64,000 nt of DNA from Candidatus Zixiibacteriota bacterium (GTDB lineage Bacteria; Zixibacteria; MSB-5A5; JAABVY01; JAHJOQ01): the NCBI GenBank assembly GCA_018820315.1, contig JAHJOQ010000092.1, positions 6,591-70,590 on the forward strand, read 5' to 3'. Below, piece by piece: positions 23,988-47,607 of this stretch. Both the position numbers and the translations under genes were made by a program. Every line of letters starts with the position of its first letter. Within the stretch, counting starts at the first letter, position 1. A model generated the notes under the pieces. The model was not told where the DNA came from and made no database searches. It worked only from the letters and a program-made list of their open reading frames with translations.

Positions 23988-24009
23988 GGCTTCCTTGCCT
24001 GGTCAATTG

Positions 24010-25458: not shown

Positions 25459-25528
25459 GGCATTGCCTCTATCGTTAATCCGAAAATTTACTGATGCTCA
25501 TAGAAGATGTCAAGGTTAATATCTCATG

Positions 25529-28104: not shown

Positions 28105-28127
28105 CGCGAATAGCTTTCGTCCAGAGC

Positions 28128-28502: not shown

Positions 28503-28512
28503 TGAGTAGTCA

Positions 28513-30231
28513 TCAGTTCAGTTTTATTGGATTGCCCTTAACATTCACCATTGCACCTTCTGCGTCGAAGGTCCCGGATGCCTTGCTCTCGAAATTAGCC
28601 GAAGCCTGAAGCTTCATATTGGCGCTGGATTTCATTTCGAGATCGGTTCCTGCCTCGACAGTGACCTTCTCGTCAGTTTTCAGCTTTATATTCTTGCCCT
28701 CGATCGAAATGTCACCATCTATGCTCTTAATTGTTATACTCGGTCCATCCATGGTTAGAATTATCTGATTGGCGCCATCAGGCGACGTTATTTCTATAGA
28801 CTCCTTGCCCGATTCATCATTGAATATAATCTCGTTTCCTGACTTTGTCGTGAACAGCTTGATTAGATTCTCTTCACTATTCGCTTTCGAATGTGGAGCG
28901 CCCTCGGAATTGTAAACCGAGCCGACCACCACTGGCCTCGATGGATCGCCGAATTCGAAGCCGACAAGGACTTCGTCATTGAGTTCCGGTATCCAGAAGG
29001 ATCCCCGATCTGAGCCAGCGTGCATTGTGGCATAACGCACCCAAGGTGTTTCATCGGAACCGCTCCAGGGAAACTTCACCTTTATTCGACCGAGCATATC
29101 CGGGTCATGGTTGTTGACAACGATTGCTGGCTGTAATTGAGTAATTTGGGGAGCCTTTCGGGACATGCCGGGAAAAGCCAGATCAAGAGGAGTGCATATG
29201 AATGTATTATGGTACTTCCCACTTTCATCAAAAATATGCTTTACGCCCTTGACCCAATAAGGTCGGTTAATCAGATCAGCCATCTCTCTGACAGTGATGG
29301 TATGACCGACCGCAACAGTCGGCATGATCGACTGTCCCTGGCAATTAATCATCCTGCCCATAGCGCTGGAACGAGCCGTCGTGAGAACCTGATCCAGCGA
29401 TCTTGAATCCGAAACCACAGGGGATTCTACAAAGCTGGGACTATCATATACTTGTGCCGAGGCAGTGGGGGAGAGGTCGGAGAGATCGGAGAGAGCGGCG
29501 GTCCTTGAGATAGATGAGGAATCATTGGAATAGCTTCTCGTCTGCTCATAGTTGTATACGGTCGACTTGAATTCCATTTGCTGAGTGCCGACGCCAAGCG
29601 CGAAGGCTCCAAGCGTCTGCCTCCATATCAGATCTTCATTCTCACGGCTGGAGGCTTCGATCAGTTTGAACTCTCCGCCATCATAATGAGCGAACTTGCC
29701 ATCTACACAGGCAAGCCTTTGGATGAAATCCCAGTCTGTTTCGCGGTATTGTACAACGAAGTTCAGGGTCCTGGCTGATGATTCCATATTTCCAACCGTT
29801 ATGGGATAGCCTCTGACCAATGCACCGATTATATCGCTTGCTGAGATTTCGTGATACAGTGCATTGCGCTTGCAGTCTTCCATCGCAATCGTCGGGCTGT
29901 GCGCCGTCACAATCACTCTGTTTAGCCCATCTATGCTGTTGTCAAGGCTGACTTCGGTGACAACTCCAATAAATTCGAGTTCCTTGGAGGCGTCGACCGT
30001 GCCACCAGTCGGAGATATTGTTACTGCGATGGATTGACCGAGGAAGTTTGTATATGTGCTCGGATCGTCAAAGTCAGCGGTGGCAGCCGTACGAGCGACT
30101 CTCTTGATTGTTACTTTTAGTACGTGATGGTCATTAATGGATTGGTTTAATTCAACCCCGGATATGAGATGGCGAATTTCGTTACCGGCGATTCTGATTT
30201 GGCAGTCAGCTGGGGTTTCGAGTACAGGCAT
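28513..30231 (-). CDS. vgrG: T6SS spike protein VgrG (TssI; gp27/gp5-like)
   Basis: Conserved gp5 OB-fold block HAGSDRGSFWIPELNDEVLVGFEFGDPSRPVVVGSVYN. 572 aa. C-terminal beta-helix-like repeats (SITIKSIDGDISIEGKNIKL...). Confidence 0.8.
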   Translation of the reverse strand: MPVLETPADCQIRIAGNEIRHLISGVELNQSINDHHVLKVTIKRVARTAATADFDDPSTYTNFLGQSIAVTISPTGGTVDASKELEFIGVVTEVSLDNSIDGLNRVIVTAHSPTIAMEDCKRNALYHEISASDIIGALVRGYPITVGNMESSARTLNFVVQYRETDWDFIQRLACVDGKFAHYDGGEFKLIEASSRENEDLIWRQTLGAFALGVGTQQMEFKSTVYNYEQTRSYSNDSSSISRTAALSDLSDLSPTASAQVYDSPSFVESPVVSDSRSLDQVLTTARSSAMGRMINCQGQSIMPTVAVGHTITVREMADLINRPYWVKGVKHIFDESGKYHNTFICTPLDLAFPGMSRKAPQITQLQPAIVVNNHDPDMLGRIKVKFPWSGSDETPWVRYATMHAGSDRGSFWIPELNDEVLVGFEFGDPSRPVVVGSVYNSEGAPHSKANSEENLIKLFTTKSGNEIIFNDESGKESIEITSPDGANQIILTMDGPSITIKSIDGDISIEGKNIKLKTDEKVTVEAGTDLEMKSSANMKLQASANFESKASGTFDAEGAMVNVKGNPIKLN

Positions 30232-30302
30232 ATGAACCTTTATTCAGATAATTGTCAGCCGGGCAGGGGATGTCCTCCTGCCCGGGCATAATCGAAAGAA
30301 AC

Positions 30303-30707
30303 TTATTCTTCCCAGCGGTTATCTATCGTCGCGTCACCGATCGTAAGGTCATGACAAGATATCTCGAAGTACTCGTGAATCTGGTCATCAGGACTGTTCT
30401 TGACGTGAGGGATCATCTCGATGTACTCCGTAATGAACCCCTCGTTCCACGTCAGCTCCTTCATCATCGCATCTGTTGGATTCTTGAAGGTCACCTTGCC
30501 GGCCTTCCAGTTTGGTGCGCTCGAATCCATTGCCCAACGAGCAATGTCTGACGTCTCGTCTGATTCTCTTCTGACCTTGATTGTGCCGGCATGAGCGCGG
30601 TCTGATGGACGGCCAGTTTCATCCTTGGCTGTGTACAGCCTGTAGCTGACCTCATAGACGTTCTTGTAGACGACGCCGTCGATTTCGAGAGTCGGTCTCC
30701 GTGCCAT
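30303..30707 (-). CDS. hcp: T6SS tube protein Hcp (TssD), Bacteroidetes/T6SS-iii sequence type
   Basis: LEIDGVVYKNVYEVSYRLY...GRPSDRAHAGTIKVRRESDETSD follows the pattern of FCB-type Hcp (L.IDG..Y...GRPS...GG.I...ES.E.S). 134 aa. Confidence 0.68.
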   Translation of the reverse strand: MARRPTLEIDGVVYKNVYEVSYRLYTAKDETGRPSDRAHAGTIKVRRESDETSDIARWAMDSSAPNWKAGKVTFKNPTDAMMKELTWNEGFITEYIEMIPHVKNSPDDQIHEYFEISCHDLTIGDATIDNRWEE

Positions 30708-30817
30708 AGTTTCTCTCCTTAGAATTCATTAGTGTTATGTTTCGCAACAAAACCTTAACATCCTGTTCCTGGCAGCAACAACTACCCTGACAGGAAGCTA
30801 TCTTGACTCACATTGGC

Positions 30818-32245
30818 TTACTTATCCTTTACGCTCGTCTGGTCATCCTGATTCCAGGCAGTGAACTCGATATTGAATGTCCTCGCTGGATATTTCGGAT
30901 TGAGCGCGACCTTAATATCGATCTCCTGACGCTTGCGCATCTCTTCATCAGCAAATATCTCGACGCGATAATCCTGAAGAATATTGTCACCGCCGCTAAT
31001 CGCTTTCATAAATTTGTCGATGTCGCGACGCATAGTGTCGACAAATTTCTGATCGATCACGGAGAACGTCTGTTTGTTCAGGTAATTGCGCAGAGTCTTA
31101 TACACATAATCGTATGTGCGACGAATGGAGTAGACGTTGAACGTCTCCTTGCTGAACAGTGTCGCGGCACCCATAGAAACTGCCGTGCCTTCAAAGCTGA
31201 CCATCGGGTTGACGCCTTTTTCATTTATCTTGCTGGCATCCGGCTGATTCGCCTTGAACCTCAGATACTTCGCATCGGCAATCTTCCCATGCTTGAAACC
31301 TGCCATCGGCTGCTGCATGCCGACTGTTGTGTCACCCTGGTACATCTTGCCGGCGACTGACGCTGACGGTGGTATCCACATGTCCTCGTCTTCGTACTGG
31401 TTCTGCTCGCGAGCCAGAAGGTAGTTCGCGAACACCGATACATACTGCTTGTAGTTGTCGATTCCGGGAAGGTTGGCGTAGTTTGGATCGTCGAGCATGT
31501 CCATGACTTCCTCGACACTCTCCAGATTGGGGAGGTCAGTCATGATGTGCAGCTTGTTCGGGAGACCGAGCTGTCGCGCGACGGTGTCAATGTTTTCGAC
31601 ACTGCCGAGATAACCGGGGATCACGGCCATCGAGAAGCAGTCTTTGATACTCCACTCGCGATAGAGATCGGCGACAGCTTTCGACAATTCCTCGAATTTC
31701 TCCTTGTCATCGGGATCGACCAGTTCCTCTCCGCTGACATTGGCGAAGTAGGCATTGACCTTCTCGTCCGGTTCCTGCTGGGCATTTGCGAAGAACTTGT
31801 CAATAGCGCGATAGGTCGTCTCAAGTTCGCGTGACTCCCTGTGCACTTTCTTCATATTCTTTTCGAGATTCGCCTCGAGCTTGGTAGACTGCTCATTAAG
31901 GCTCTTGCGGATGGTCTCGATATTTTCTTCCTTCGCGAAATTGTCTATCCAGATTCGCAGGCGCTCGGCGAGAAGTTTCCGTTGAGTTTCGAAGTCCTTC
32001 TTGGTCAGGAATTCTTTGCGCTGAAAGTCCTTCTTCGGATCGAGCCATTCTACGCCCCGAACGAGATCGCCATCAGTGGTCTTGAATGACGGAAGCAGTC
32101 CTGCCAGCTTCTTGAAATCACCGAATGTATCCCCCAGTATCGCCGCAAATTCCTCATCCGATACTTTCTCGACTTCGAGTGCTGGCTTTGCCGCGGCCGC
32201 CTCAGCAGCCTCTGCCTGTGGTTCCAATTTCTCTTCTTCACCCAT
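30818..32245 (-). CDS. tssC: T6SS contractile sheath large subunit TssC (VipB-like)
   Basis: 475 aa, acidic N-terminus. Immediately downstream of the tssB-like gene and upstream of hcp. Confidence 0.58.
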   Translation of the reverse strand: MGEEEKLEPQAEAAEAAAAKPALEVEKVSDEEFAAILGDTFGDFKKLAGLLPSFKTTDGDLVRGVEWLDPKKDFQRKEFLTKKDFETQRKLLAERLRIWIDNFAKEENIETIRKSLNEQSTKLEANLEKNMKKVHRESRELETTYRAIDKFFANAQQEPDEKVNAYFANVSGEELVDPDDKEKFEELSKAVADLYREWSIKDCFSMAVIPGYLGSVENIDTVARQLGLPNKLHIMTDLPNLESVEEVMDMLDDPNYANLPGIDNYKQYVSVFANYLLAREQNQYEDEDMWIPPSASVAGKMYQGDTTVGMQQPMAGFKHGKIADAKYLRFKANQPDASKINEKGVNPMVSFEGTAVSMGAATLFSKETFNVYSIRRTYDYVYKTLRNYLNKQTFSVIDQKFVDTMRRDIDKFMKAISGGDNILQDYRVEIFADEEMRKRQEIDIKVALNPKYPARTFNIEFTAWNQDDQTSVKDK

Positions 32246-32261
32246 CTATCTTCACCTCTTT

Positions 32262-32702
32262 CTATTCGCTCAAAAGATCGATGTAGTAAGCCATGACTTT
32301 CAGAAGAGCTTCTTTCTTGTCACTGTCCTGAAGGATCTTCTGCAGGGATTTGTTCTTCTTAAGCTGCTTGTCGAGATCGGACATCATCTCTTTGCTGTAA
32401 TATGTTTTCTGGAGATGCTCATTTTTCTCGATGAGTTCCTTGGACGTGAAATCTTTCATCGCCCGGATATCAAAGTCGCCGTTGACAGGCTCGCCGTCGG
32501 CAGTCTCCATCTCCACTGAGAAAGACGGCTGGAATTTCTCAAAGACTTCTTTGAGGTTGTTGCATCTCTTCGGTGCTACGTCGGCTTCCTCGCTGTTGTT
32601 GAGTTTTGCCGCGTACAACATCTTGTTGGAAGGGAGAAGTTCGACCGGGATAGAATCATCCCGTTGGATCTTCTCGGTCGCTCCCAAAATGAACTTCGCC
32701 AT
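32262..32702 (-). CDS. tssB: T6SS contractile sheath small subunit TssB (VipA-like)
   Basis: 146 aa. Architecture and C-terminal helical segment (FTSKELIEKNEHLQK...KEALLKVMAYYIDLL) resemble VipA. Adjacent to tssC. Confidence 0.55.
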   Translation of the reverse strand: MAKFILGATEKIQRDDSIPVELLPSNKMLYAAKLNNSEEADVAPKRCNNLKEVFEKFQPSFSVEMETADGEPVNGDFDIRAMKDFTSKELIEKNEHLQKTYYSKEMMSDLDKQLKKNKSLQKILQDSDKKEALLKVMAYYIDLLSE

Positions 32703-32733: not shown

Positions 32734-33831
32734 TTATTTACTTCTCTCAGTGGTGAACGTGTAGTTGTCGTCCTTTACTCCTATGTTAACACGATCTCCA
32801 GCTTTTATCTTACCGGTTATTATATCAACTGACAGTCTGTTGACGATATCTCGCTCAATGATTCTCTGGATCGGTCTTGCTCCGAGCTCGAATGTGTAAC
32901 CATCCTTCGCCAGTTTCGACTTCGCTTCCTTGCTGAGAGTGGCCTCGATATTCTGGTCAGATAGCATACCGCAGAGATTGTTGAATTCAAGACCCGCTAT
33001 CACTTCTACCTGCTCCGGCGTGAATGTGTGATAGATAATGATGTCATTGAGACGGTTCAGGAACTCCGGTCTGAATTTGCTGAAAAGGAAAGTGCGAACT
33101 TCATCCATATCGACATCGCGACCCTCTCTATCAGCATCCAGAATCTTGTCTGCGGCATAGTTCGACGTTAGTACGACGATCGTGTTGGAAAAGTCGACGG
33201 TTCGATTCTGTCCATCTGTCAGCCTGCCATCATCAAGAAGCTGCAACAGAACGTTAAAGACATCGGGGTGAGCTTTCTCGGTCTCATCAAAAAGCACGAT
33301 AGAGAACGGTTTCCGTCGCACCGCTTCCGTCAGAACACCTCCAGCCTCATATCCGACATATCCGGGCGGAGCGCCTATCAGCTTGGCGACAGAGTGCGAC
33401 TCCATAAATTCCGACATGTCGAGTCTAACCATTGCGTTCTTGTCGTCGAAGAGAAACTCCGCAAGCAGCTTTGGCAGATATGTCTTGCCGGTGCCGGTAG
33501 GTCCGAGAAACAAGAACGACCCGACTGGTCTGTTTGCAAGCTTCAGTCCAGCCCTTGCCTTGCGAATCGCATTGGCTATAGCTTCAATCGCCTTCTCCTG
33601 CCCGACGATTTTCCTGGACAGGAATGATTCCATATTGATCAGACGGTCTTTTTCTGCTGTCAACATCTTGGAGACAGGTATGCCGGTTCGGCGGGCGACG
33701 ACAGAAGCAACATCAGCGTCCTCAATTGTGCGCTCTATGGATTCAGCCACTTTCTTCAATGGCGCGAACTTCCTCACCTTCTCGTCGAAATCCTTCTTCA
33801 GGAGTTCAATGTTTGTGACATCTATAGGCAT
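32734..33831 (-). CDS. clpV: ClpV/ClpB-type AAA+ ATPase, C-terminal half (M-domain remainder + NBD2 + C-terminal small domain)
   Basis: VGQEKAIEAIANAIRKARAGL sensor block. Walker A GPTGTGKT. Walker B VLFDETEKAH. Sensor-2 region LDDGRLTDGQNRTVDFSNTIVVLTSN. Start ATG shares one A with the stop of the upstream half (TAATG). Confidence 0.8.
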   Translation of the reverse strand: MPIDVTNIELLKKDFDEKVRKFAPLKKVAESIERTIEDADVASVVARRTGIPVSKMLTAEKDRLINMESFLSRKIVGQEKAIEAIANAIRKARAGLKLANRPVGSFLFLGPTGTGKTYLPKLLAEFLFDDKNAMVRLDMSEFMESHSVAKLIGAPPGYVGYEAGGVLTEAVRRKPFSIVLFDETEKAHPDVFNVLLQLLDDGRLTDGQNRTVDFSNTIVVLTSNYAADKILDADREGRDVDMDEVRTFLFSKFRPEFLNRLNDIIIYHTFTPEQVEVIAGLEFNNLCGMLSDQNIEATLSKEAKSKLAKDGYTFELGARPIQRIIERDIVNRLSVDIITGKIKAGDRVNIGVKDDNYTFTTERSK

Positions 33832-35288
33832 TATTCCACCCCCTCAGAAGCTTCGACCCGATGTCCCCAGAATTCCTGAAGGCGATCGAAATTTCTGGAG
33901 AAGTCATCATACTTCTCCTGAAGTTCATCGAATTTCTCTTTCTCCTTGTCGGGATTCTTGCCTTCCAAAGCTTCTATTAGTCCTTTCAACTCAGCGATGT
34001 TGGTCTCGATCTCAACGACTCGAGTTTTGCTGAACTCTTCTTTGACCGCAAGCTCTGATGCAGATTCATCAACGAGGTCGAGGGCGATGTCAGGGAGGTT
34101 CCGTTCGCTGAGATATCGCATCGCATATCTTACTGAACCTGTTATAGCCTCATCCGTGAACGATATCTTGTGATGGTCCTCGTACTTCGCTATCACGCCC
34201 TTAACTATCCTTACAGCGTCATCGAAATTAGGCTGCTCGACTTTCACCCGCTCGAATCTCCTGTCGAGTGCCTTGTCTTTTTCGATGTACTTGGTGTATT
34301 CTTCCTCGGTGGTAGCACCGATCAGCCGCATATGGCCGCGCGCGAGGGCCGGCTTGATGAGGTTTGCCGCATCCATGCCGCCCGATACGTTACCAGCACC
34401 TACCAACGTGTGGATTTCATCGATGAACAGGATAATCTTGCCACCGGATTTGACAACTTCGCTGACTAATGACTTGAATCGCTCTTCGAATTCGCCCTTG
34501 TACTTCGCACCCGCAACGAGCGATCCCATGTCGACAGCCATGACTTTAACATTCTGGAGGGCTTTCGGAACCTCGTTAGCGATGACCGCCTGAGCAAAGC
34601 CTTCGACAATAGCGCTCTTACCGACTCCTGCACCGCCTACCAGTGAGGGGCTATTTTTTCTGCGCCTCAGAAGAATCTGGATCAGCTGCTGAAGCTCCTT
34701 TTCGCGGCCGATCATCGGGTCGAATTCGCCTGCAGCCGCCTGGTTAGTCATGTCGATACAATACTTGAGCGTGCCTGCGATTTCTTTCTTACCTTGCGCC
34801 TCGGCGCCTGTCCCGGACAAAGCAGCACCTGCCGTTGCGATCTCCTCAACAGACTTGGTGTCTGCTATTGCTCGATAGATATCTTCTTTCTTGATATCGA
34901 CCTTTTCACGCACATAAGGGGAGAGGCCCGACTTCGGATCGAATACTGCTATGAAAATGTGCTCGGGCTCAACAAGAGGATCGAACAGCTTAGCTTTCTC
35001 TTCCAGAGCATCGGTCAAAGTATCCTGCACGGCAGGGGAGACTGTCTGGTTCTCTTTGGTCGATGACCTCTTCGGAATCTCTTTCAGGTGCTCCTCCGCG
35101 ATCGCTTCGATGAATGCGACACTCTTGCCAAGCTGATTCAGTATCGACTCGACTTCAGAGGAATCATGTCGAATCGTCGCGATAAGGAGGTGTTCGACGT
35201 AGATTTCCGGGTGCTTGAATGATGCTGCTACTTCACGGGCGACTCGAATTACCGCCCGGGAATCAGCCGAATAACTTGCGATATCCAT
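33831..35288 (-). CDS. clpV: ClpV/ClpB-type AAA+ ATPase, N-terminal half (Clp_N domain + NBD1 + start of coiled-coil M-domain)
   Basis: Clp N-domain repeats. NBD1 Walker A LVGGAGVGKSAIVEG. Walker B ILFIDEIHTLVGAG. C-terminal coiled coil ending at a TAA that overlaps the next ATG. Confidence 0.8.
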   Translation of the reverse strand: MDIASYSADSRAVIRVAREVAASFKHPEIYVEHLLIATIRHDSSEVESILNQLGKSVAFIEAIAEEHLKEIPKRSSTKENQTVSPAVQDTLTDALEEKAKLFDPLVEPEHIFIAVFDPKSGLSPYVREKVDIKKEDIYRAIADTKSVEEIATAGAALSGTGAEAQGKKEIAGTLKYCIDMTNQAAAGEFDPMIGREKELQQLIQILLRRRKNSPSLVGGAGVGKSAIVEGFAQAVIANEVPKALQNVKVMAVDMGSLVAGAKYKGEFEERFKSLVSEVVKSGGKIILFIDEIHTLVGAGNVSGGMDAANLIKPALARGHMRLIGATTEEEYTKYIEKDKALDRRFERVKVEQPNFDDAVRIVKGVIAKYEDHHKISFTDEAITGSVRYAMRYLSERNLPDIALDLVDESASELAVKEEFSKTRVVEIETNIAELKGLIEALEGKNPDKEKEKFDELQEKYDDFSRNFDRLQEFWGHRVEASEGVE

Positions 35289-35459: not shown

Positions 35460-36665
35460 TTACTTCGGCGCAAATCTATCGGACTCAATGTAATTCACAG
35501 TTTCGCTGTCTATCTCAATGCCATCAGTGTAGGTCACCCTAGCCAGAGAGAGTCTCCTGAACGTTCCGTTTGAAATGACCAGGTAGTCAGAGAATTCGCA
35601 GTCGCTGATCGCCACGCCAGTCATCTGTGCTCCCTCGAAGTTCGCACCTGATATCTTGCAGCTGGTAATCTCTCCACCAGATCCGAAAACTGACTCTACG
35701 CAATAGAGATACGCGAGATTGCTGTTGCGTAGGGTGAGGCTATCGACCTTGGAAATGTAGATTTTCGGCTCCGACATCTTCTCGCAACTGTCGATCGTGA
35801 GCAGCTGGCAGTCAGAGTTGACGATGTTGAGGCCATTGAAACCGCTGCATCCGAGGATGATCAACTGCTGGATCTTCGCTTTTCCAAAGGAGATGCTCTT
35901 GCTTTCGCATTTTTCAAACAGGAGCTTCTTTATAGTGCTTTCACCGAAGCTGCCTGACATGATGTTCGACTCAGAAATCTTTAGATCGTCGATTTTGGCA
36001 TTGCCGAATACAACGAGTTCCAACTTGCCGTCAATGATCTCAGTCAAGTCGAATCTGGCATGATAGAGACTTGTGTTGTGCCAATCTGGTTTGATTAGCT
36101 TGGTGTTAATGAACTCTGCCCTGGTGTATATACCGGAATCATCGGCGCAATTGCTAAATGTGCATTTTCTGAAGGCTGCATCACTTAGCTTTGCTCTAAC
36201 GCTTCGGCAGTCTGTGAAAGAACAGTTGTTGAATGTGCTCTGTTCAAAAGATACACCTCCGAATTCACACTCAATAAAACGGACATCCGTGAACTGGGAA
36301 TTCGAGAAGTCGTCGGAGGCGAACTTGACATTTCTGAACTCCGAATTTGTGATCCGGGCTTCCCTGCCCGCGACATTCTTAAATCCAATGTTCTTCAACG
36401 ATGACTGATTAAGCACGATGCCGGATATGTCCAGTTCCTCAATCAGCTTATCCTCGACGTGCCACCCCAACTGACCGACTTCGGCATTGAATTTCTCAAT
36501 GTCTTTGAGATCACTTTTTTCCTTGTCGCTTAATTCGGACGTCATACAGGAAACTCCTCCCAGGCTGATCATGACCACGAATACGAGCCATATCCGCAAG
36601 GGCTTAACGGTATTTCTCAAATCGCCTTCTCCACTCATAGTCGGGTATTTCGGCTCGGTCCACAT
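35460..36665 (-). CDS. pentapeptide-repeat protein with N-terminal signal/anchor (TagAB-like T6SS accessory candidate)
   Basis: Long runs of A(D/N)LxX-type pentapeptide repeats across aa 90-390. N-terminal hydrophobic segment LRIWLVFVVMISLGGVSC. Confidence 0.72.
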   Translation of the reverse strand: MWTEPKYPTMSGEGDLRNTVKPLRIWLVFVVMISLGGVSCMTSELSDKEKSDLKDIEKFNAEVGQLGWHVEDKLIEELDISGIVLNQSSLKNIGFKNVAGREARITNSEFRNVKFASDDFSNSQFTDVRFIECEFGGVSFEQSTFNNCSFTDCRSVRAKLSDAAFRKCTFSNCADDSGIYTRAEFINTKLIKPDWHNTSLYHARFDLTEIIDGKLELVVFGNAKIDDLKISESNIMSGSFGESTIKKLLFEKCESKSISFGKAKIQQLIILGCSGFNGLNIVNSDCQLLTIDSCEKMSEPKIYISKVDSLTLRNSNLAYLYCVESVFGSGGEITSCKISGANFEGAQMTGVAISDCEFSDYLVISNGTFRRLSLARVTYTDGIEIDSETVNYIESDRFAPK

Positions 36666-39600
36666 CTCTTTCGATTGTATACACTTTGTGAGTGTCAGTT
36701 CCGAATATCCCTCCGCCAGAGGTGTCCGAGTCTATCTGAATCTCGAAGTTCCACCTGCTGTCGAAATCGTAATGGGAAACGAGAGGGCTTCTCTGATTGA
36801 ACTTTATCGACATGAAGATTGATCGCTCGTTGTTGCCGGCAACGAAATTGAAGAACGTCTGCGCATCCCTGCCGCGCGGTATTATCCATCGGCTTGAGCC
36901 GTCATATTGCATCTGAATCTTTTTCCACTCTCCATCGGCGGCATAGACATAAATCACAATGTCTTCCAAATTCACTAAATTGCGTACATGCTGGAAAATA
37001 ACCAATCTGAATCTGTAGTCGACCGTCCCGCGATGTTCGTCGCGGATGAGGAACTTGTCCGATTCGAATGTCTCAAGGACTCGATCATGGTGACCGATTG
37101 TCGGGTTATTTTCAAGTATGTCATAATAGTCAACTGCTACCGCTATTCGCGGCTTTGTAGCCGCCTTGACAGGCTCCATCCTCTCGACATCACCCGCTGA
37201 ATCGAAGCAGATCTTCGAACCTGCCGAGTGGTCACTTCCCACGCCGTTGAACTCGCCTGCCTTGTTGAGTCTCGGATGCGGCCCTGCGGAGTCTGACACT
37301 ATCACTATGGGAGTGACTCGCCTGCCGGTAGCTCTAAGCGCAGGATAATCTGAGAAATCGTAGTAGCTGGTTTTCACCGAATTGTCACCGCTGTAATCTA
37401 GTCGGTTAATGGTGTAGAAGCCTCTTCGATGCGAATGCCCCGTCAATACGACCTGTATGGTGCGGCGAGTGACAAGATGTTCTTCATAGAGCGGCTGTCT
37501 GTTGGTCTCGAATGTCCCCTGATCATGATCGTCTGCATCCCAGTATGTGTCGAATTCCACATCTCCCTCTTCAGCAGTGCTCATGGGGATGCTTTCGAGA
37601 TAGCTGACAAATGTGAAGTGGCTTGTGAATATGATCTTCTTCTGATCTTCGATTGCGCGGTTCAACAGTGCAAGCTGAGTGTCGGTCACTGGATCATCGG
37701 CTCTCGGAAGATGGCCGAAGCCCTGATCTATTCCGGGGAAATCTAGCACATCTTCCTCATCTCCCCACGCCATTCCGACAAGGTTTTGGTCAGGAAATCC
37801 TGAAGCGAAATCAGAGAAAGGAGTGAACACAGTATAGAACCACTGAAGTTTCTCGTAATGGAACGTACCCATTTCCTTGACTACCCCATAAGTCTCTCCG
37901 AATGCGAGTGTCGCTTCATAGATGGTCAGATTGTGATCCGCAGCGATGCCGGGATTGGCACGGACCCATGCGACTCGAGGAGAGATACCGTATGGCAGCG
38001 CATACGCATCGTGATTTCCTGTGACAACGTAAACGGGCTTCTGATATCTCTTGTAGAAATAGACTATGAGCGTATATAGGGCGATAGCGTCAACATAATC
38101 CTGATATCTTGATTCGTATGAATCGTCGAGGGCAACCTGATCCCAAATCTGCTTAACCGTTCTACTTGTCCTGTCCGGATAGAGCATTTTGTTGAAATCA
38201 ATGAGATCTCCTGTAAGCATGAGCGCGTGGATCCCAGGATCACTTCCTACGCGGTCAAGCAGGGACTTTATGATGCGCGTGGAGACTCCAATCATAGAAC
38301 CTATTTTGGGAGAATCCTCCAGCGGGATTTCTTCCTCAGCGACAATCAGCGTCACTTGAACCTGCTGTGGCGAGTTGTTCGCCTCCGCAGATGAGATCGT
38401 AATCGAAGACTGATATGTGCCTGGTTCCCTGCCGCTGGCATTGGTGGAAATGAGAGCTGAATTTGGATTGTCGGATGTAGTAACGCCCGATGCAGGACTG
38501 ATGCTTACCCAGTCATCATCTGGAGCTGCAGTCCAATTCAGTGTGTCGCCTCCGGTATTGACTATGGTGACCGATTGAGGTCCTGTGTCGGCACCGCCCG
38601 GATGTGCAACAATCGCAACCGACTCGGGAGAAACGTGAAGGTGCGGAGGATTCTCAGTCTGTGGTGGCGGAGAGGAGGGAGGCACGACGATCTCCTCTCC
38701 CGGATATATCAGATCGGGATCGCCGCTTCTGAGACGCTGCGAATTCGGGATACCTGTTCCGCCGTCATAGTGCCAGAGCTGCTGCCATGTCATGCCATAG
38801 CGTGAGGCAATCTTGGAAAGCCAGTCGCCGCTCACAATGACATAGATGTCATATGTCGGGGCGGGAGAGGGGGGAGACTGAGAATCAGATTGAGTCTCCG
38901 ATGGTGTCTCAGATGATGGCGGTGCGCCTTCGGATGGCTGCGCTGCGACCGTCTCAAATGGATACTCAATGACCCTTGCTTCGCATCTGGACAATACGGT
39001 CTGCCTTGCGGCAAGGTGAATGTCTGTCAGATGTCCCATGTTCAAGTATGGTGGGCATTGCTCGTAATAGACCACAGGATGATAGGCCTGAATAGGGTTC
39101 ATCAGATCCGCTTCTGTGTGGTCAACATCATCTTCAGTTAATCTATAGCAGTACTGTCCACCCTCGATTATATTGGGACCATTCATATTTCGGAGAACAG
39201 TTCTTATTTGATCATCCTGAATCTCGTTTGATGTAATCTTTCCCGGTTCGACGCGATTTAGAGTATGTGTTGGAACGACACCCGGTCCGGATGCGGGAGC
39301 AGCACCGGCGGATGTTATCTCATGCCAGGTCTGATCATGCGGATAGAGCCAGAATAGATTATTAACACCGTTGGCGAGCAGATTAGTGTGTCTGATGGAG
39401 ACGCAGTACAACTGCGTGTACGCCGCGTCACGAAGCATCTGAAGGGATTGGCTGTCAAGAACCCCTTTGAATCTGGTGTCAGTGGCTATGACATTTTCAT
39501 CTAAGACTATACTGCGGAAAGATATTTCAACCGACCCATCCAATTGCGAAAGAGGATTAACTGAGAAACTTTTGGCCGGATCAAGGCCTCCGGTGATCTT

Positions 39601-39786
39601 TATCTGATAATCGATGTTGTCATTGGATAGTGTATAACCGTCATTTAGGAGTATTAGCAATTCAATATCCCGGGGACTCTGCGTGCCCACGACTACCTGC
39701 GGGGTTAGCAGCGACGGATATAATATCATTGCGGGAATGGCATAAATTACATCGTGACGTCTTCCGGTTGTACCTTGTGGACTCAT
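36604..39786 (-). CDS. large multidomain protein (1060 aa): N-terminal domain, Pro/Ser-rich linker, LysM peptidoglycan-binding domain, Ig-like domain, calcineurin-like metallophosphoesterase domain
   Basis: LysM: YDIYVIVSGDWLSKIASRYGMTWQQLW...LIYPGEEIVVP. MPP motifs: ALMLTGDLID, YVVTGNHDAY, VLTGHSHRRG. Confidence 0.6.
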   Translation of the reverse strand: MSPQGTTGRRHDVIYAIPAMILYPSLLTPQVVVGTQSPRDIELLILLNDGYTLSNDNIDYQIKITGGLDPAKSFSVNPLSQLDGSVEISFRSIVLDENVIATDTRFKGVLDSQSLQMLRDAAYTQLYCVSIRHTNLLANGVNNLFWLYPHDQTWHEITSAGAAPASGPGVVPTHTLNRVEPGKITSNEIQDDQIRTVLRNMNGPNIIEGGQYCYRLTEDDVDHTEADLMNPIQAYHPVVYYEQCPPYLNMGHLTDIHLAARQTVLSRCEARVIEYPFETVAAQPSEGAPPSSETPSETQSDSQSPPSPAPTYDIYVIVSGDWLSKIASRYGMTWQQLWHYDGGTGIPNSQRLRSGDPDLIYPGEEIVVPPSSPPPQTENPPHLHVSPESVAIVAHPGGADTGPQSVTIVNTGGDTLNWTAAPDDDWVSISPASGVTTSDNPNSALISTNASGREPGTYQSSITISSAEANNSPQQVQVTLIVAEEEIPLEDSPKIGSMIGVSTRIIKSLLDRVGSDPGIHALMLTGDLIDFNKMLYPDRTSRTVKQIWDQVALDDSYESRYQDYVDAIALYTLIVYFYKRYQKPVYVVTGNHDAYALPYGISPRVAWVRANPGIAADHNLTIYEATLAFGETYGVVKEMGTFHYEKLQWFYTVFTPFSDFASGFPDQNLVGMAWGDEEDVLDFPGIDQGFGHLPRADDPVTDTQLALLNRAIEDQKKIIFTSHFTFVSYLESIPMSTAEEGDVEFDTYWDADDHDQGTFETNRQPLYEEHLVTRRTIQVVLTGHSHRRGFYTINRLDYSGDNSVKTSYYDFSDYPALRATGRRVTPIVIVSDSAGPHPRLNKAGEFNGVGSDHSAGSKICFDSAGDVERMEPVKAATKPRIAVAVDYYDILENNPTIGHHDRVLETFESDKFLIRDEHRGTVDYRFRLVIFQHVRNLVNLEDIVIYVYAADGEWKKIQMQYDGSSRWIIPRGRDAQTFFNFVAGNNERSIFMSIKFNQRSPLVSHYDFDSRWNFEIQIDSDTSGGGIFGTDTHKVYTIERDVDRAEIPDYEWRRRFEKYR

Positions 39787-39810: not shown

Positions 39811-40677
39811 TCAGTTCTCTCTTTCAACTTCAATGGAGCATCTTCCGGGCGGAACATCTTCCTCCCTCGCAGTGCCATCTCCGCCAAATGTACCTCGTCG
39901 CTGGCTTCCGTCAGCAAGATGGAGAATGTAGCTCTCGTTTCCGGTATAGTTGAGAACTCTGATCTCAATCCAATCCTTGAAGATCAATAACCCCGATTCT
40001 TGCTCCCGCCCATACTCAATATCATTGAGCTTGATCGTGAAGAAGTACTCCGGGGAATTGTAATTGCGACCGTACTCCTGCATCTCTTCTTCTGTCGGAA
40101 TTTCGTCAGTATCTTCGTGATATTCGTATTCCCATTCCTGTTCGATTTTATCATCGATCACTTCAGCCCTCAGCTCAGTGATCTTGTCATGAGCACTGTC
40201 GCGATCATATTCATAGATGGTAAGCATCACCTCGGTATGGGGGCGAACATTCCTCACATCGGCTGAGAGTGTGAGCGTGTCGCCTCTGCGAGCCTCGCTC
40301 TGACTCCATCTCATGTTCGAAATCTCCGGAGGAGGCACAACGGGTATTCTGTCCGATTCACCGTCCAGTCCGTTGTCTGGAAGCTTGACCTCGAAGTATA
40401 TCTGATCGTCTATTTCGGTGTCTTCCGGGATCTCGAATTCGCCGTCGTAAACGTTGTTGCTGATTGTGGCGCTGATCTTGCCAAGATTCTCGCCATTCTC
40501 GCTCTTACCTTTGATCTTGATCTTAGCGCCGTTACCGACGAACGCCGTCCCAATCGTGAAGCCGGCAGTCTGACCTGCAATAGCCGCGCCCCGTTTCCAG
40601 ACCGCATAGATCAGCGACGAATCGAGCTCGATCTCGTGTTCTTCGTCGGTGCTTTTGTTGAAAGTCAGATCAGGCAT
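39811..40677 (-). CDS. hypothetical acidic protein (288 aa) in T6SS accessory region
   Basis: Long ORF with good coding periodicity, co-oriented and tightly packed with neighbours. No recognisable motif. Confidence 0.4.
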   Translation of the reverse strand: MPDLTFNKSTDEEHEIELDSSLIYAVWKRGAAIAGQTAGFTIGTAFVGNGAKIKIKGKSENGENLGKISATISNNVYDGEFEIPEDTEIDDQIYFEVKLPDNGLDGESDRIPVVPPPEISNMRWSQSEARRGDTLTLSADVRNVRPHTEVMLTIYEYDRDSAHDKITELRAEVIDDKIEQEWEYEYHEDTDEIPTEEEMQEYGRNYNSPEYFFTIKLNDIEYGREQESGLLIFKDWIEIRVLNYTGNESYILHLADGSQRRGTFGGDGTAREEDVPPGRCSIEVEREN

Positions 40678-41116
40678 CGTCTACTTCTGCAATTTCGTAC
40701 GTTCCGGGTACGAGGGCTTCGATCAGTTTCATCATTCCGACGCCGACAGTCTTCAATGTCTTCTTCGAAAACTCACCGGAAAATGTGAACCCGATTCCGT
40801 CTTTTATCACAAAGACATATTTGTGGATAGCTTGTACTCCGCCGGATGGTGTCCACCTATAGACGAATTCGTGCGCCTGATTGCCTCGATCGAGAGTGAT
40901 AGCTTCATCTTTGAGAACATCAACTCCTTGAAGAGTCGATTTTATCGGATCGATCCACTCCTTCGCGAAGTCGGCAACATCGAGATGTTGAAGCTGTCTG
41001 TTCAGCACAAGTGTCACCTGATGTGCAGTCTCGCCGTCGCTCGGTCCTCGAAAATGATAAACGGTTTGATCTTCCCAGCCACGGGGAATGTCCAGCTTGA
41101 AAATAGTCTCACTCAT
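40670..41116 (-). CDS. hypothetical small cytoplasmic protein (148 aa); adaptor/chaperone or immunity candidate
   Basis: Co-oriented, 8-nt overlap with the downstream gene. Compact alpha/beta-like composition. No signal peptide. Confidence 0.4.
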   Translation of the reverse strand: MSETIFKLDIPRGWEDQTVYHFRGPSDGETAHQVTLVLNRQLQHLDVADFAKEWIDPIKSTLQGVDVLKDEAITLDRGNQAHEFVYRWTPSGGVQAIHKYVFVIKDGIGFTFSGEFSKKTLKTVGVGMMKLIEALVPGTYEIAEVDDA

Positions 41117-41118: not shown

Positions 41119-42027
41119 TTACTTCTCTAATGACCTGATGAAGCGTTCCGCCTCTTTAACTTGTCCTTCACTATATATCAGAAACTCATCTGTTTCGAAC
41201 GAGAAGGGTCTGTCATACCATACAGCGATAAGATTGATTGCTGCGTCGCATACACGGGCGAACTCCGGGTCCGCTTCGGGATGGCCGATGTCATACGCAT
41301 CTGAAGTATCGGCGAGGGCTGGGAGGAGACGTGAAGCGAGTCGCTTATCACTTATGTATTCCAGAGCAAGAATGACATCATAGCGACCCTCAAGAGGGGG
41401 AGTATCGATCTGAGACGCAAATTCATTCTTGAATTCCTCGTCGCCAAGCCTGGCCATGGCCAGTTTGATCTGTTTTCCCACGTTTGCATCGTCTTCCTGA
41501 TCAAGTTGTTTCCGGAGAGGCTTCATCGCACTCGCATCATCGATTCTACCGATCAATCGAGCTACGCCGCCCCTCACCACCGCATCTGTGTTGCTTAGGT
41601 TTGCTATCAAACCCTGCAGGATAGCACTGCTGATGCGAGAGCGGATGGACTGCAGAGCCGACGCGCGGACTTGAGCATCTTTGTCCCACAGGGCTTCGAC
41701 CAGAACAGTCGGGACACTCTCATCGTCGGTGAGCACCACGCAACTGAGAGCAAGCTCTCTGGTCTCGGGGTTCTCATTCTTAAGCAGCTCCAATAAGACC
41801 GGCATTGCAGGTGAACCGATCTCCTCGGCCTGGAGGAGTGCGTCATCGCTATCTTCCAGAACGGCTTTTCTAAGGCTATCGAGTTCCACTTTGTGTTCCC
41901 CTCTGCTTCTTTGCTGATCTCGGCCACCACATGCGATGTGGACGGCAACTACCAACGTCAGCACCAAGAGATACCAAGTGCTGACTCTCACGAATTTCAT
42001 CCTGTTCCTGCTGTGCCTATCAATCAA
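41119..42027 (-). CDS. HEAT/PBS-lyase repeat protein with N-terminal signal anchor (periplasmic; immunity-protein candidate)
   Basis: N-terminal TM VSTWYLLVLTLVVAVHIA. Repeated HEAT-like helical pairs (PETRELALSCVVL..., DAVVRGGVARLIGRI..., GKQIKLAMARLGD). 4-nt overlap with the upstream effector gene. Confidence 0.55.
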   Translation of the reverse strand: MIDRHSRNRMKFVRVSTWYLLVLTLVVAVHIACGGRDQQRSRGEHKVELDSLRKAVLEDSDDALLQAEEIGSPAMPVLLELLKNENPETRELALSCVVLTDDESVPTVLVEALWDKDAQVRASALQSIRSRISSAILQGLIANLSNTDAVVRGGVARLIGRIDDASAMKPLRKQLDQEDDANVGKQIKLAMARLGDEEFKNEFASQIDTPPLEGRYDVILALEYISDKRLASRLLPALADTSDAYDIGHPEADPEFARVCDAAINLIAVWYDRPFSFETDEFLIYSEGQVKEAERFIRSLEK

Positions 42028-43733
42028 GGATTCCTGTAAAAACTGGCTGACGACGCATGCCTCCGCGCATTATGACATTCATTGTCAGTTCGATCCGCTG
42101 GATTGTCTCTAATACTGATATCTGCGCCCTTATTCCGATTACCGTACCCGACGTTATGGCACCATCGATCACCCGCTCGCGACTGAAAAGGCCAGAGACC
42201 GTACATAAGTCTCTTGAGTGACCAGAAATCGGTCTTCTTGTGTGCAGAGTCGGGATCATCCTCTGAATGCGCAAGCGACGGATTTCTGAATCCATTTGCG
42301 AGCGCCATAGCATGGCCAAGTTCATGGGCGAGTGTCCTACCGATTTCGACCGCAGTCGAATTGAAGGCTCCACCCGTGCTGGCAAGGGCAATCCCCACGA
42401 GAGGCCAATTTCGATATCGCTTTGTCGAGTAGGTGATTCCGAATGCACCCTCTATATTTCGCACTACATACAGATTCAGTTTATTATCCTCAGTGGCGTG
42501 TCCCTCGGAGTCATTCGTCGTCATGATCGTGCGATATTCGGCATTTACCGATCCCCACGTTATGATGCCGGATCGCGACAGTGTCACAGCTTTTTCACGC
42601 CAGGCTGCAGTTCTGAATCTGACTCCGATTGGCCAGAGAATTTCGTTCGCAACGGCGATAGCATCATTGATCAGTGCCTGATTCCCGACTGGCGCCATTG
42701 CGCCGGTGTAATGAACACCACCCGTATCGTGGTCGGAGCCGTTTATTGTCAACCAATAGGGGCGAATAGTCTTGACTATCAGGGGAAGCACAACCACCTG
42801 AAGCGAAGCAATTTCTATTCGCTCCCGACCGCGCTTGAATTTGATCTTGACCGATGTGCTTCTCGGAACCGCTCCGCTGGGAGTCTTGGTCCGAAGCTGA
42901 AGTATGATTTCCCTGCCTGTCGGCAAAGGGTCGGGTGACACTACTTCCACGAGGGCAGTGTCCTCACTTTCCGCCATCAGTGACGTATTGCTTGCGAGGC
43001 ACTCTCTGGTCAGCTTGAGACGAAACGGCGTCTCGCGTGCCATCGTCACAACTGGCCCCTCCAAGTCAATATTGGCACATTTAGTTTCTATGAATCCTCT
43101 GACATCCGGTTCGGGAGCTCTGCCCCAGGGGCGTCCGGATGTAACCGTTGCATCAGTGTTCGACGGTGCCCTTTCGAATCGAACCAGCGAACGACGAATA
43201 ATGAAGACGTCATCAGTCGTATTGTCATCATCGGTAACCGAGTTCAATCTGGTTCGTGTTGTATTCCTGGCAATGCCGTCTGTTCTCAATCCGGTATCAG
43301 CCTGAAATCTCAGAATGGCTTCTTCCGATGCCTTGCCGAAGGTGCCGTCGACTTTGCCCGTGTAGTAACCGAGAAGCTGCAGTCTGCGTTGTATACCGGC
43401 CTGCATGGTGCCGTGCCCCACGCCTGAGTTTGCATTGCAATCGCCGAGAGTATCCCAGGCTGCCAGACAGATATCTTCGCCTGGGGCAGGTTCATTGATC
43501 TCACCATGTAGCTGCTTGACGACATAAGTTGTGCCGAGGACCGTCAATCGAGCGGTTCCGCCTTGGGCGATGCGCAGACCATAGTAGCCGTTGCCTTGCG
43601 GCCTGACCGGCGTATCCGAACCTTCAAGTGTGGCATCGCCACCATTGATAATGCTGTCGGCGTCGACGCCGGGTACTTTCTGAAAGCTTAGCAGCACATC
43701 AGCGGTCGTTGCCTCAACTTCCTGGTGACACAT
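42024..43733 (-). CDS. T6SS effector candidate: peptidoglycan-binding domain (PG_binding_1) + C-terminal HExxH zinc metallopeptidase domain, no signal peptide
   Basis: IQRRLQLLGYYTGKVDGTFGKASEEAILRFQADTGLRTDGI matches the PG-binding repeat. RTLAHELGHAMAL is a zincin HExxH site. Located immediately downstream of the PAAR gene. Confidence 0.62.
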   Translation of the reverse strand: MCHQEVEATTADVLLSFQKVPGVDADSIINGGDATLEGSDTPVRPQGNGYYGLRIAQGGTARLTVLGTTYVVKQLHGEINEPAPGEDICLAAWDTLGDCNANSGVGHGTMQAGIQRRLQLLGYYTGKVDGTFGKASEEAILRFQADTGLRTDGIARNTTRTRLNSVTDDDNTTDDVFIIRRSLVRFERAPSNTDATVTSGRPWGRAPEPDVRGFIETKCANIDLEGPVVTMARETPFRLKLTRECLASNTSLMAESEDTALVEVVSPDPLPTGREIILQLRTKTPSGAVPRSTSVKIKFKRGRERIEIASLQVVVLPLIVKTIRPYWLTINGSDHDTGGVHYTGAMAPVGNQALINDAIAVANEILWPIGVRFRTAAWREKAVTLSRSGIITWGSVNAEYRTIMTTNDSEGHATEDNKLNLYVVRNIEGAFGITYSTKRYRNWPLVGIALASTGGAFNSTAVEIGRTLAHELGHAMALANGFRNPSLAHSEDDPDSAHKKTDFWSLKRLMYGLWPFQSRAGDRWCHNVGYGNRNKGADISIRDNPADRTDNECHNARRHASSASFYRNP

Positions 43734-43740: not shown

Positions 43741-44916
43741 TTACCTCGGGAGTCTTCTCGCTCCTGACAAGTTGGGGAATTCGACTCGACTCTGTTCGGG
43801 CGGGATGTTCGCTTCAATTGCCTCGCCGTTACTGTCAAGAGTCCCTCTGCGGACCTCGCCGTTTGCGAAACGCACCACATAGGCCTCGGATGCGATCGGA
43901 TTTCCATTTTCGTCTTTCAGCACTATCTTGAGGCTGTCGCTGATCTGGAGCATGCCTGAACGGGCCCGGCAGCTTCCGACATCAACGATGAAGTAGAATC
44001 GCGGAAAGGCGTAGCTCTGCGTGCGAGATCTGCCGAGAGTCGGATCACCCGTCCTACCTCTGTAACGAAATGTCCACTCGGCCTCGACGTTGTCGCCGCT
44101 CGATTCAGCTTCGACCGCATCCACAAGCTCATCCGCAGCAGATGCATTCTTCTTGAATATCTGGAACACGGCCGCTGTACCCGATTCGAAGCCCGATATC
44201 CCAGCCTGCAGGGTGACCGCCTCACCGACTCTGGCCGTAGTGGCTGACCATGTGGCGCTGGTTACGGCTCTGACCGAGACTTCATAGCTGCCTTCCTGCA
44301 CGCCGCTCTGTCTGATTCTGCCTGCAAGTGCGCCTTCGGTTGTCTCGCCATCGGGGGATGTCACAGAATATCTGGCTCCCGTGATTGGTCGCCCTCCACC
44401 ATCAACGAAATTAACATCGAGATAATGCTGCTCTTCTACCTCCGCCTCGTCGGAGGTGCCCTCGCTCTGCCCGCCGCCTGCCTGGCCGCCTCCACCGCCG
44501 CCGCCCCCGCCGCCATTGCCGATCAAAACATTTGGGCTGCCGATTATTATCTTCGCCTTGTTTGTCGGAGGTTTCTGAAATGCTGTGCCTGGAGGTGTAG
44601 GGATATGTGGGGGAGTATTCGATGCCTGGCTGTCGACAGTTGCCGCTGGCAAGCCCTCGATTTTGACCGACGAGCTCAGTCCGCTGTCGAGCATTCCCAT
44701 GAATGGATGTGGCAGGGGAGTAGGTACTGGACCGCCGGGGGTCGGTACCATGACGATATGAACGTCGACACCGACGACTTGATCATTCTGCTTGGCAGCA
44801 GGCATATTGTTGATCAGAACTGTCACCGCTGTACCGATTACCGTACCGACCGGCATGTCAGTCGGATCGTTGCAGGTCATCGCCGTGTCGCCCATTCTTG
44901 CGGCAGGTTTTCCCAT
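43741..44916 (-). CDS. PAAR-domain spike-tip protein with Gly-rich linker and about 220-aa C-terminal extension
   Basis: MGKPAARMGDTAMTC...VIGTAVTVLINNMPAAKQNDQV contains literal PAAR motifs. Poly-Gly linker GGGGGGGGGGGQAGGG. Start taken at internal ATG 44916; the track uses TTG 44943. Confidence 0.72.
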   Translation of the reverse strand: MGKPAARMGDTAMTCNDPTDMPVGTVIGTAVTVLINNMPAAKQNDQVVGVDVHIVMVPTPGGPVPTPLPHPFMGMLDSGLSSSVKIEGLPAATVDSQASNTPPHIPTPPGTAFQKPPTNKAKIIIGSPNVLIGNGGGGGGGGGGQAGGGQSEGTSDEAEVEEQHYLDVNFVDGGGRPITGARYSVTSPDGETTEGALAGRIRQSGVQEGSYEVSVRAVTSATWSATTARVGEAVTLQAGISGFESGTAAVFQIFKKNASAADELVDAVEAESSGDNVEAEWTFRYRGRTGDPTLGRSRTQSYAFPRFYFIVDVGSCRARSGMLQISDSLKIVLKDENGNPIASEAYVVRFANGEVRRGTLDSNGEAIEANIPPEQSRVEFPNLSGARRLPR

Positions 44917-45029
44917 GGTTCCCCGGAGTTGTCTCTCGTTCAATCAACGGCAGAAAAGTTAAGAATGTTTGCGGCAGGAGTCAACAAATAGTTGTCAGGG
45001 GTGTTTCACCATTTGTGCTCAGATTCGAC

Positions 45030-45339: not shown

Positions 45340-45409
45340 ATCGCAAGTGGGATAATATACTCGACTAAAGTAGATCGCAATAATCCTGTATATGAGAGGA
45401 GCTTCAAAT

Positions 45410-47530: not shown

Positions 47531-47607
47531 TCTCCCTGCCCTGCGAAGGCCTGCAAATGTGACTATTGATCGGGCGGCTCATTTCAATGAGACCGGAGGA
47601 ATACAAC

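Follow-up and report, generated by a model that had tools for sequence, protein, structure and literature searches.

A metallophosphoesterase with LysM and BACON domains inside its catalytic fold in a Zixibacteria type VI secretion operon: a probable cargo effector with a candidate pentapeptide-repeat immunity partner

What would a large enzyme with a peptidoglycan-binding domain be doing in the middle of a type VI secretion system (T6SS) operon? The question is raised by a gene on contig JAHJOQ010000092.1 of the Candidatus Zixiibacteriota bacterium assembly GCA_018820315.1, a metagenome-assembled genome (MAG) of the Zixibacteria, from which we analysed the 64,000 nucleotides between positions 6,591 and 70,590 of the forward strand (this whole stretch is referred to here as the window, and coordinates are counted from its first letter). 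The gene lies at 36604–39786 on the minus strand, and the listing of open reading frames (ORFs) confirms that it starts with ATG and encodes 1060 amino acids (aa), as had been described in an earlier reading of the DNA made without database searches (the sequence-only reading); an identical protein is entered at NCBI as 'MAG: metallophosphoesterase [candidate division Zixibacteria bacterium]'. That reading had rightly placed the gene within a T6SS locus, as genes for PAAR, ClpV, TssB, TssC, Hcp, VgrG, TssE, TssG and TssK are found in the same operon, and it had offered two roles for the protein, a peptidoglycan anchor of the TagL/TagN kind or a large phosphoesterase or nuclease effector. Our analysis favours, with moderate confidence, a T6SS cargo effector that would hydrolyse a phosphoester in the envelope of prey cells, and for which the adjacent pentapeptide-repeat protein would provide immunity.

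The protein contains all five signature motifs of the metallophosphoesterases (MPEs), which are D255/H257 (DxH), GDxxD, GNHD, H723 and GHxH, and Pfam identifies three domains above their gathering cut-offs, namely LysM (PF01476, residues 315–340, 28.7 bits against a cut-off of 20.9), BACON_2 (PF19190, residues 383–476, 39.7 bits against 25) and Metallophos (PF00149, residues 506–787, 29.8 bits against 21.5). These bear out the LysM, Ig-like and metallophosphoesterase domains named in the sequence-only reading, as well as its GDxxD, GNHD and GHxH motifs (GDLID at 526–530, GNHD at 590–593 and GHSH at 783–786) and its Pro/Ser-rich linker flanking the LysM (aa 279–312 and 369–382). What did not survive is the side-by-side layout in which the LysM sits next to the MPE domain. 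An alignment of the protein with nine homologues places MPE motif I (HLTDIH, including D255/H257) upstream of the LysM, which makes the LysM and BACON domains, together with their Pro/Ser linkers, an insertion of ~200 aa that separates motifs I and II of the catalytic domain. It is for this reason that the Metallophos match begins only at profile position 18, compared with position 2–3 in homologues free of the insert. Among the nine aligned homologues, the insertion is carried only by the six closest (43–83% identity), with P0007 having an N-terminal LysM instead and P0008, P0012 and P0014 having no LysM. The Zixibacteria lineage is thus an architectural variant of its MPE family, with LysM and BACON lodged inside the catalytic domain.

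This layout is also seen in an AlphaFold model produced from a 69-sequence alignment (pLDDT 88.9, pTM 0.81; an earlier model from 10 sequences was unusable, with a pLDDT of 54.6), in which a beta-rich N-terminal domain is followed by a split MPE core and a C-terminal beta-sandwich region. The N-terminal domain (aa 1–235; 39082–39786, minus strand, as are all parts of the gene) is family-specific, has no Pfam match, and holds an invariant 'ILYPSL' motif (I21, Y23, P24) and an internal 'NLFWLYP' strand. The first part of the MPE domain (aa 236–278; 38953–39081) contains an invariant H236 and motif I, and leads into the first disordered linker (aa 279–312; 38851–38952; pLDDT <50). The LysM that follows (aa 313–370; 38677–38850) is modelled as a beta-alpha-alpha-beta unit inside the MPE fold (strand 313–316, helices 323–329 and 334–338, strand 365–368), and the BACON_2 or PapD-like Ig domain (aa 383–482; 38341–38640) belongs to the same insertion and is matched by Foldseek to PapD-like, ASH and BACON domains with target TM-scores of ≤0.74. 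Both Pro/Ser-rich linkers are low-confidence segments of the model, in which the LysM and Ig modules hang on disordered tethers (279–308 and 372–378). The second part of the MPE domain (aa 490–800; 37387–38319) contains the remaining motifs and, at aa 610–625, the family signature 'ANPGIAADHNLTIYEA', and the C-terminal beta-sandwich region (aa 801–1060; 36607–37386) is kept family-wide and has no Pfam match. A hydropathy scan for signal peptides and transmembrane (TM) helices, which the sequence-only reading had left to be done, found neither, as no segment reaches the hydrophobic threshold anywhere in the 1060 aa.

With a profile we searched 1.84 billion cluster representatives exhaustively (clusters formed at 50% identity) and obtained 611 clusters at E <1e-3 and 346 at E <1e-30, with most matches spanning the whole ~900-position core and with members spread over many phyla, from the Zixibacteria to the Burkholderiales and Myxococcota. 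(A homology search with an alignment rich in LysM and BACON returned only 8 proteins that were already known, with LysM and BACON words dominating the filter.) Members are named in the databases only as 'metallophosphoesterase', 'CpdA', 'LysM domain-containing' or 'hypothetical', and an NCBIfam scan returned nothing specific and no family name for the window protein. Profile searches against PDB sequences found no significant match to a solved MPE, the best being Mre11 (E about 0.9) through generic motifs only, and Foldseek searches of PDB and BFVD with the complete model gave nearly only Ig/BACON matches and were uninformative about the MPE subfamily. In the 69 aligned sequences, where identity falls to 25%, residues D255, H257, G526, D527, G590, N591, H592, H723, G783, H784 and H786 are invariant, and since the metal-site residues are retained over such distances this conservation argues for an active enzyme. 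The GDxxD, GNH and GHxH motifs are likewise kept in nearly all of 148 newly returned representatives, none of which has a typical signal peptide, and N-termini across the family are hydrophilic. LysM and BACON are missing from most of the family, and other peptidoglycan-related modules are found in some of its members: an N-terminal LysM in P0007, P0054, P0059, P0077 and those from Desulfosarcina, OmpA-like and PG_binding_1 domains in the N-extended P0055, P0061 and P0137, and an N-terminally fused Peptidase_M23 in P0124.

Further analysis was directed at the genes around these MPEs. A scan of one genome per GTDB species yielded 65 loci from the Latescibacterota, Ignavibacteriales, Zixibacteria, Acidobacteriota, Planctomycetota, Myxococcota, Gammaproteobacteria, Burkholderiales, Leptospirales, Gemmatimonadota and Verrucomicrobiota, with three MPE gene copies in some genomes, and neighbours were analysed over 69 loci by calling ORFs and then clustering them (the recurrent clusters c22, c55 and c56 in high-GC loci are spurious opposite-strand ORFs and were ignored). 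The co-occurrence of homologues with T6SS genes, a point raised by the sequence-only reading, held in part: at least 28 of the 69 loci have VgrG, PAAR, Hcp, TssC, ClpV, DUF4123 or DUF1795 within 10 kb, and this is a lower bound based on few phmmer queries and the 10-kb range. Three close homologues show a synteny like that of the window, and the order PAAR, DUF1795, 288-aa protein, MPE, pentapeptide protein and ClpV–TssB–TssC is kept in loci of the Zixibacteria, Latescibacterota and Ignavibacteriales, with the DcrB/DUF1795 gene standing two genes upstream of the MPE in the window and in six related loci. Elsewhere the arrangement is VgrG, DUF4123, MPE and pentapeptide protein, as confirmed by Pfam in Collimonas and as found by ORF clustering and phmmer in Massilia and Formivibrio (the Massilia VgrG is also Pfam-confirmed), and VgrG lies upstream of the MPE in Anaeromyxobacter, Pseudacidovorax and a gammaproteobacterial MAG. 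DUF4123 is directly upstream of the MPE in four loci, in L050 by Pfam (E 1.8e-22) and in L047, L049 and L058 by phmmer homology to the L050 member. Both DUF4123 and DUF1795 (DcrB) are well-known families of T6SS adaptors, encoded beside spike and effector genes (PMC7714669). The MPE is also carried by auxiliary PAAR or VgrG islands (L011, L013 and L050), and in the Acidobacteriota, Planctomycetota, Myxococcota and Desulfosarcina a PG_binding_1 protein of 214–245 aa without a signal is encoded directly upstream of it, some of these proteins appearing LysM-like by eye.

The proposed immunity protein is encoded directly downstream of the MPE in the window (35460–36665, minus strand) and has an N-terminal hydrophobic signal that ends at a conserved Cys in a lipobox-like 'LGGVSC' sequence. 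The true start is probably internal to the longest ORF, because this overlaps the MPE stop by 62 nt. A pentapeptide-repeat homologue directly adjoins the MPE in 46 of the 69 loci, usually downstream (in the Myxococcota it precedes the MPE gene), and forms tandem arrays of two or three genes in L044, L047 and L060. Most pentapeptide partners bear Sec or Tat lipoprotein signals, and a signal ending in a lipobox-like conserved Cys, often of the twin-arginine type, is found in partners from the Zixibacteria, Latescibacterota, Ignavibacteriales, Gammaproteobacteria, Burkholderiales and Verrucomicrobiota. Partners from the Acidobacteriota, Planctomycetota, Myxococcota and a few others (L014, L015, L017–L027, L036, L011 and L077) start at the mature sequence and have no signal. 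When orthologous loci are compared, the sheath, Hcp and ClpV share 70–80% identity and VgrG, the ORF in the TssF position and the MPE share 45–51%, with the pentapeptide protein at 32–44% being the fastest-evolving gene of the block.

We propose the following course of events. The MPE, in which we found no export signal, would be made in the cytoplasm and loaded onto the PAAR/VgrG spike with the help of the DUF1795-type protein and the 288-aa protein that resembles the PAAR extension, and would then be fired into a neighbouring bacterium. There the binuclear MPE site, all of whose motifs are present, would break a phosphoester or pyrophosphate bond in some component of the envelope, and by analogy only lipid II, undecaprenyl-pyrophosphate-linked precursors or phospholipid head groups are candidate substrates. 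In the Zixibacteria lineage the LysM and BACON domains, set into the loop that follows motif I, would keep the enzyme attached to peptidoglycan. The downstream pentapeptide lipoprotein would act as the cognate immunity protein, which in the periplasm of sister cells would bind the arriving enzyme and block it. Four findings agree with this picture of a T6SS cargo effector that acts on the prey envelope and has a cognate immunity protein: in phyla that are not related the MPE follows spike and adaptor genes; its active site is complete and invariant; the enzyme lacks an export signal but repeatedly comes with peptidoglycan-binding or -cleaving modules, either in cis or in trans; and the small protein next to it is fast-evolving, usually exported and sometimes duplicated in tandem. 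The presence of multiple MPE copies per genome also supports the effector reading. A bolder version, which we consider unlikely, would make the MPEs a new, phylum-spanning class of T6SS toxins, counterparts to colicin M and TelC, that cleave a pyrophosphate or phosphodiester linkage in lipid II or another undecaprenyl-phosphate-linked wall precursor and are guided by peptidoglycan-binding modules encoded in cis or in trans, with the pentapeptide beta-helix as a new immunity fold that may mimic a linear anionic substrate.

A number of points weigh against the effector–immunity reading, and they are best considered with the other explanations that might be offered. Our functional statements rest on sequence, a structure model and gene context, and the substrate is proposed by analogy, as the PDB searches found no solved relative and the fold searches were swamped by the Ig domain. 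The signal-less pentapeptide partners do not fit a purely periplasmic model of immunity, and those of the Myxococcota, Acidobacteriota and Planctomycetota would better suit a nuclease effector that acts in the cytoplasm on prey DNA in the manner of Mre11/SbcD, with the pentapeptide protein as a DNA-mimic immunity protein. The pentapeptide-repeat fold mimics B-form DNA in MfpA and Qnr, and the pentapeptide protein of the window gives sub-threshold matches to both; the non-significant Mre11 hit was the only PDB sequence match, and one match to a viral 'DNA repair exonuclease' was also obtained (E 1.7e-3). Set against this, most partners have lipoprotein or Tat signals, which would place them in the periplasm, the recurrent fusion or pairing of the MPE with peptidoglycan-binding or -cleaving domains would make no sense for a DNase, and the partners are only mildly acidic (median pI 5.7; net charge and pI are both too moderate to speak either for DNA mimicry or against it). 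We therefore think a nuclease quite unlikely, and of the effector proposal made in the sequence-only reading it is the phosphoesterase that stands, on the lack of an export signal, the invariant site, the spike and adaptor context and the adjacent candidate immunity gene. About 40 of the 69 loci have no recognisable T6SS gene within 10 kb by our few phmmer queries, and in Desulfosarcina ovata (L076) the trio of PG_binding_1, MPE and pentapeptide genes stands in housekeeping surroundings among aconitase, LepA, CarB and IleRS genes with no T6SS gene within 10 kb. The three genes might then form an envelope module independent of the T6SS, with its own export route and a physiological role in wall or lipid metabolism, whose proximity to T6SS genes is incidental in some lineages. 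Orphan effector–immunity pairs are, however, common in T6SS biology, the distribution is patchy, sometimes multi-copy and cassette-like, neither the peptidoglycan-binding partner nor the MPE has an export signal, and VgrG and the dedicated adaptor DUF4123 are immediate neighbours of the MPE in unrelated lineages, so that we find such a module distinctly improbable.

The conserved synteny across three phyla could also be that of an accessory part of the secretion machine, such as a peptidoglycan anchor or wall-remodelling factor similar to TagL, TagN or TagX. The gene has a fixed place in the main T6SS operon of the Zixibacteria, Latescibacterota and Ignavibacteriales, the window protein contains a LysM and has PG_binding_1 proteins nearby, and the MPE diverges to the same extent as VgrG and the ORF in the TssF position. 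TagL, TagN and TagP are likewise encoded in T6SS loci and have a peptidoglycan-binding module, but they are membrane-anchored or exported, have OmpA/Pal/MotB-type domains and lack an enzyme domain, whereas the window protein is anchorless, bears a LysM and has a full catalytic site. Pfam finds LysM only, and no OmpA/Pal/MotB-type domain (PF00691), in the protein. The anchor role put forward in the sequence-only reading fails because the protein has neither an anchor nor an export signal with which to reach the periplasm of its own cell; most family members also lack LysM and BACON, several copies are present in some genomes, and the MPE is found in auxiliary PAAR/VgrG islands and, in L076, within a cassette on its own. 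Neither a phosphoesterase nor a LysM factor is among the T6SS accessory genes listed in a 2026 review, and an accessory role is in our view very unlikely. The same review describes the pentapeptide-repeat proteins of the T6SS as cytoplasmic spike accessories, TagAB/TvpB, which occur with DUF2169 or DUF3540; the known examples are thus spike-assembly accessories and not immunity proteins, and the pentapeptide protein and MPE might together serve the spike in this way instead of forming a toxin–immunity pair. Neither DUF2169 nor DUF3540 was found by Pfam in the ORFs of the window operon or in the neighbouring genes selected for scanning from related loci, most pentapeptide copies are exported lipoproteins and would be in the wrong compartment for spike assembly, and their tandem duplications resemble immunity arrays, all of which leaves this the least probable of the explanations.

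The remaining genes of the minus-strand operon are in keeping with a complete T6SS. The module that leads to the MPE begins with a PAAR protein (43741–44943) with a C-terminal extension of ~230 aa, followed by a 569-aa PG_binding_1 protein without a signal peptide (42024–43733), a HEAT-repeat protein with an N-terminal signal or lipobox (41119–42027), which weakly matches TIGR02270 (fusions of this family to PRK06147, a candidate T6SS adaptor, have been reported), and a 148-aa DcrB/DUF1795 protein of the Eag-type adaptor family without a signal peptide (40670–41116). The 288-aa protein directly upstream of the MPE (39811–40677) is homologous over aa 118–283 to the C-terminal extension (226–388) of the PAAR protein of the same locus (phmmer about 1e-17), and may be a separately encoded copy of a domain that decorates the spike or serves as an adaptor, and so a candidate spike-linked adaptor or partner; NCBIfam gives no family name for this protein or for the DUF1795 protein. 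After the pentapeptide gene the operon continues with ClpV (as two ORFs), TssB, TssC, Hcp, VgrG (28513–30231), TssE, a 556-aa ORF, TssG and TssK. The 556-aa ORF is in the TssF position and has no Pfam match, with only an NCBIfam baseplate-assembly match below cut-off. ClpV is encoded by two adjacent ORFs (32734–35288), one containing the N-domain and AAA1 (485 aa) and the other AAA2 (365 aa), and the division into two is probably genuine, not the result of a frameshift, because it is kept in related Zixibacteria-type and Ignavibacteriales loci (L001, L002 and L010); ClpV is fused (840 aa) in two Latescibacterota-type loci (L007 and L009).

The sequence-only reading had also assigned the system to T6SS-iii, a type confined to the Bacteroidota according to a recent review. 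This assignment is supported by TssC and Hcp (within 20262–32702, minus strand), which match the Bacteroidota-type families PF17541 (2.5e-69) and PF17642 (1.7e-19), respectively, but the host is a Zixibacteria MAG and the putative membrane-complex genes (177, 307 and 731 aa) have only weak IcmF/TssM matches. The Bacteroidota-type TssC and Hcp are also found in the Latescibacterota and Ignavibacteriales loci. PADLOC found no defence-system match for the MPE or the pentapeptide partner, and a phage or defence origin was rejected given that the surroundings are a complete T6SS operon. Divergent from the operon, two large proteins are encoded on the plus strand, the first (45392–47530) combining a streptopain-like Peptidase_C10 domain with thrombospondin type 3 (TSP3) repeats and the second (47566–49245) a C39-like peptidase with TSP3 repeats and a dockerin.

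We note three further observations on the domains of the MPE family. The strand motif 'LYNLFW.YP' is found at the extreme N-terminus, before 'ILYPSL', in 79 family members, and ~120 aa after 'ILYPSL' in 23 members and the window protein (NLFWLYP, aa 143–150, about 39340–39360 on the minus strand); this shift in position may represent a strand permutation in the N-terminal domain. An 'EMEDVLFH' N-terminal motif with an OmpA-like module occurs in N-extended MPEs (L011; P0055, P0132, P0137, P0155 and P0191) and also in a metalloprotease-like HExxH protein of 1087 aa, whose gene follows that for PAAR in Ignavibacteriales-type loci (L010, 4063–7326), and in this it resembles the trafficking or targeting modules of polymorphic toxins. 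The ~53-aa LysM module of the window protein shares 70–85% identity with the LysM of otherwise unrelated proteins of ~690–740 aa (P0018–P0027 and P0031), one of which carries L-lysine epsilon-oxidase domains. The only one of these checked for context, P0023 (L073, 10001–12223), lies in a T6SS-i cluster in the order VgrG, 120-aa protein, PG_binding_1 protein and P0023, which suggests a LysM cassette common to T6SS cargo proteins; the sharing of this module with a VgrG-linked protein supports the effector reading.

The arrangement we describe has the order of the cargo modules for which DUF4123 (Tap/TEC) or DUF1795 (Eag) proteins serve as adaptors, such as the vgrG–tap–effector–immunity islands of Vibrio and Pseudomonas, in which VgrG or PAAR is followed by an adaptor, a large signal-less enzyme and a small exported protein, and it shares with them the tandem repetition of the last gene, the presence of several paralogous islands in one genome and the occurrence of orphan pairs. 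It differs from them in that the catalytic domain is calcineurin-like and the candidate immunity protein is a pentapeptide-repeat beta-helix, and unlike the usual Eag clients the window protein has no prePAAR or TM region and the DUF1795 gene is two genes upstream. The Tle phospholipases and their Tli lipoprotein immunity proteins have the same features of a proposed envelope hydrolase without a signal peptide, a periplasmic lipoprotein partner and a link to VgrG, but Tle1–4 are alpha/beta-hydrolase lipases and Tle5 is of the phospholipase D (PLD) type, whereas the window protein combines a binuclear MPE fold with peptidoglycan-binding modules and any lipid activity is hypothetical. A similar logic, in which an exported toxin acts outside the cytoplasm, is seen for colicin M and for TelC of the Streptococcus type VII secretion system, which cleave the phosphate linkage of lipid II (PMC12419801), but the folds and secretion systems are unrelated and a lipid II substrate for the MPE is speculation. 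Within the PF00149 superfamily (Mre11/SbcD, CpdA, GpdQ and LpxH, among others) the protein shares all five signature motifs, and is set apart by its ~900-aa core with family-specific N- and C-terminal domains, by the two binding domains inserted between motifs I and II, and by the lack of a significant sequence match to any solved MPE.

A literature search on T6SS in combination with metallophosphoesterase, calcineurin-like or metallophosphatase proteins and with pentapeptide immunity found no characterised case, and the statement in the sequence-only reading that no role has been described for this domain combination holds for the literature searched, apart from an unverified mention in one Neisseria survey of effectors with a 'metallophosphatase domain' downstream of VgrG. 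Our comparison, which draws on gene order and protein sequence, suggests a new toxin class and a new immunity fold within a known kind of module, the T6SS effector–immunity pair. If this is correct, a widespread and uncharacterised enzymatic class, the binuclear metallophosphoesterases, would join the T6SS effector repertoire, the pentapeptide-repeat lipoprotein would represent a new fold for immunity, and a phosphate-containing molecule of the envelope would be an antibacterial target. The family has culturable carriers in Collimonas, Cupriavidus, Variovorax, Enhygromyxa and Desulfosarcina, and the three-gene signature of a peptidoglycan-binding protein, an MPE and a pentapeptide protein would provide a means of finding T6SS cargo in little-studied phyla.

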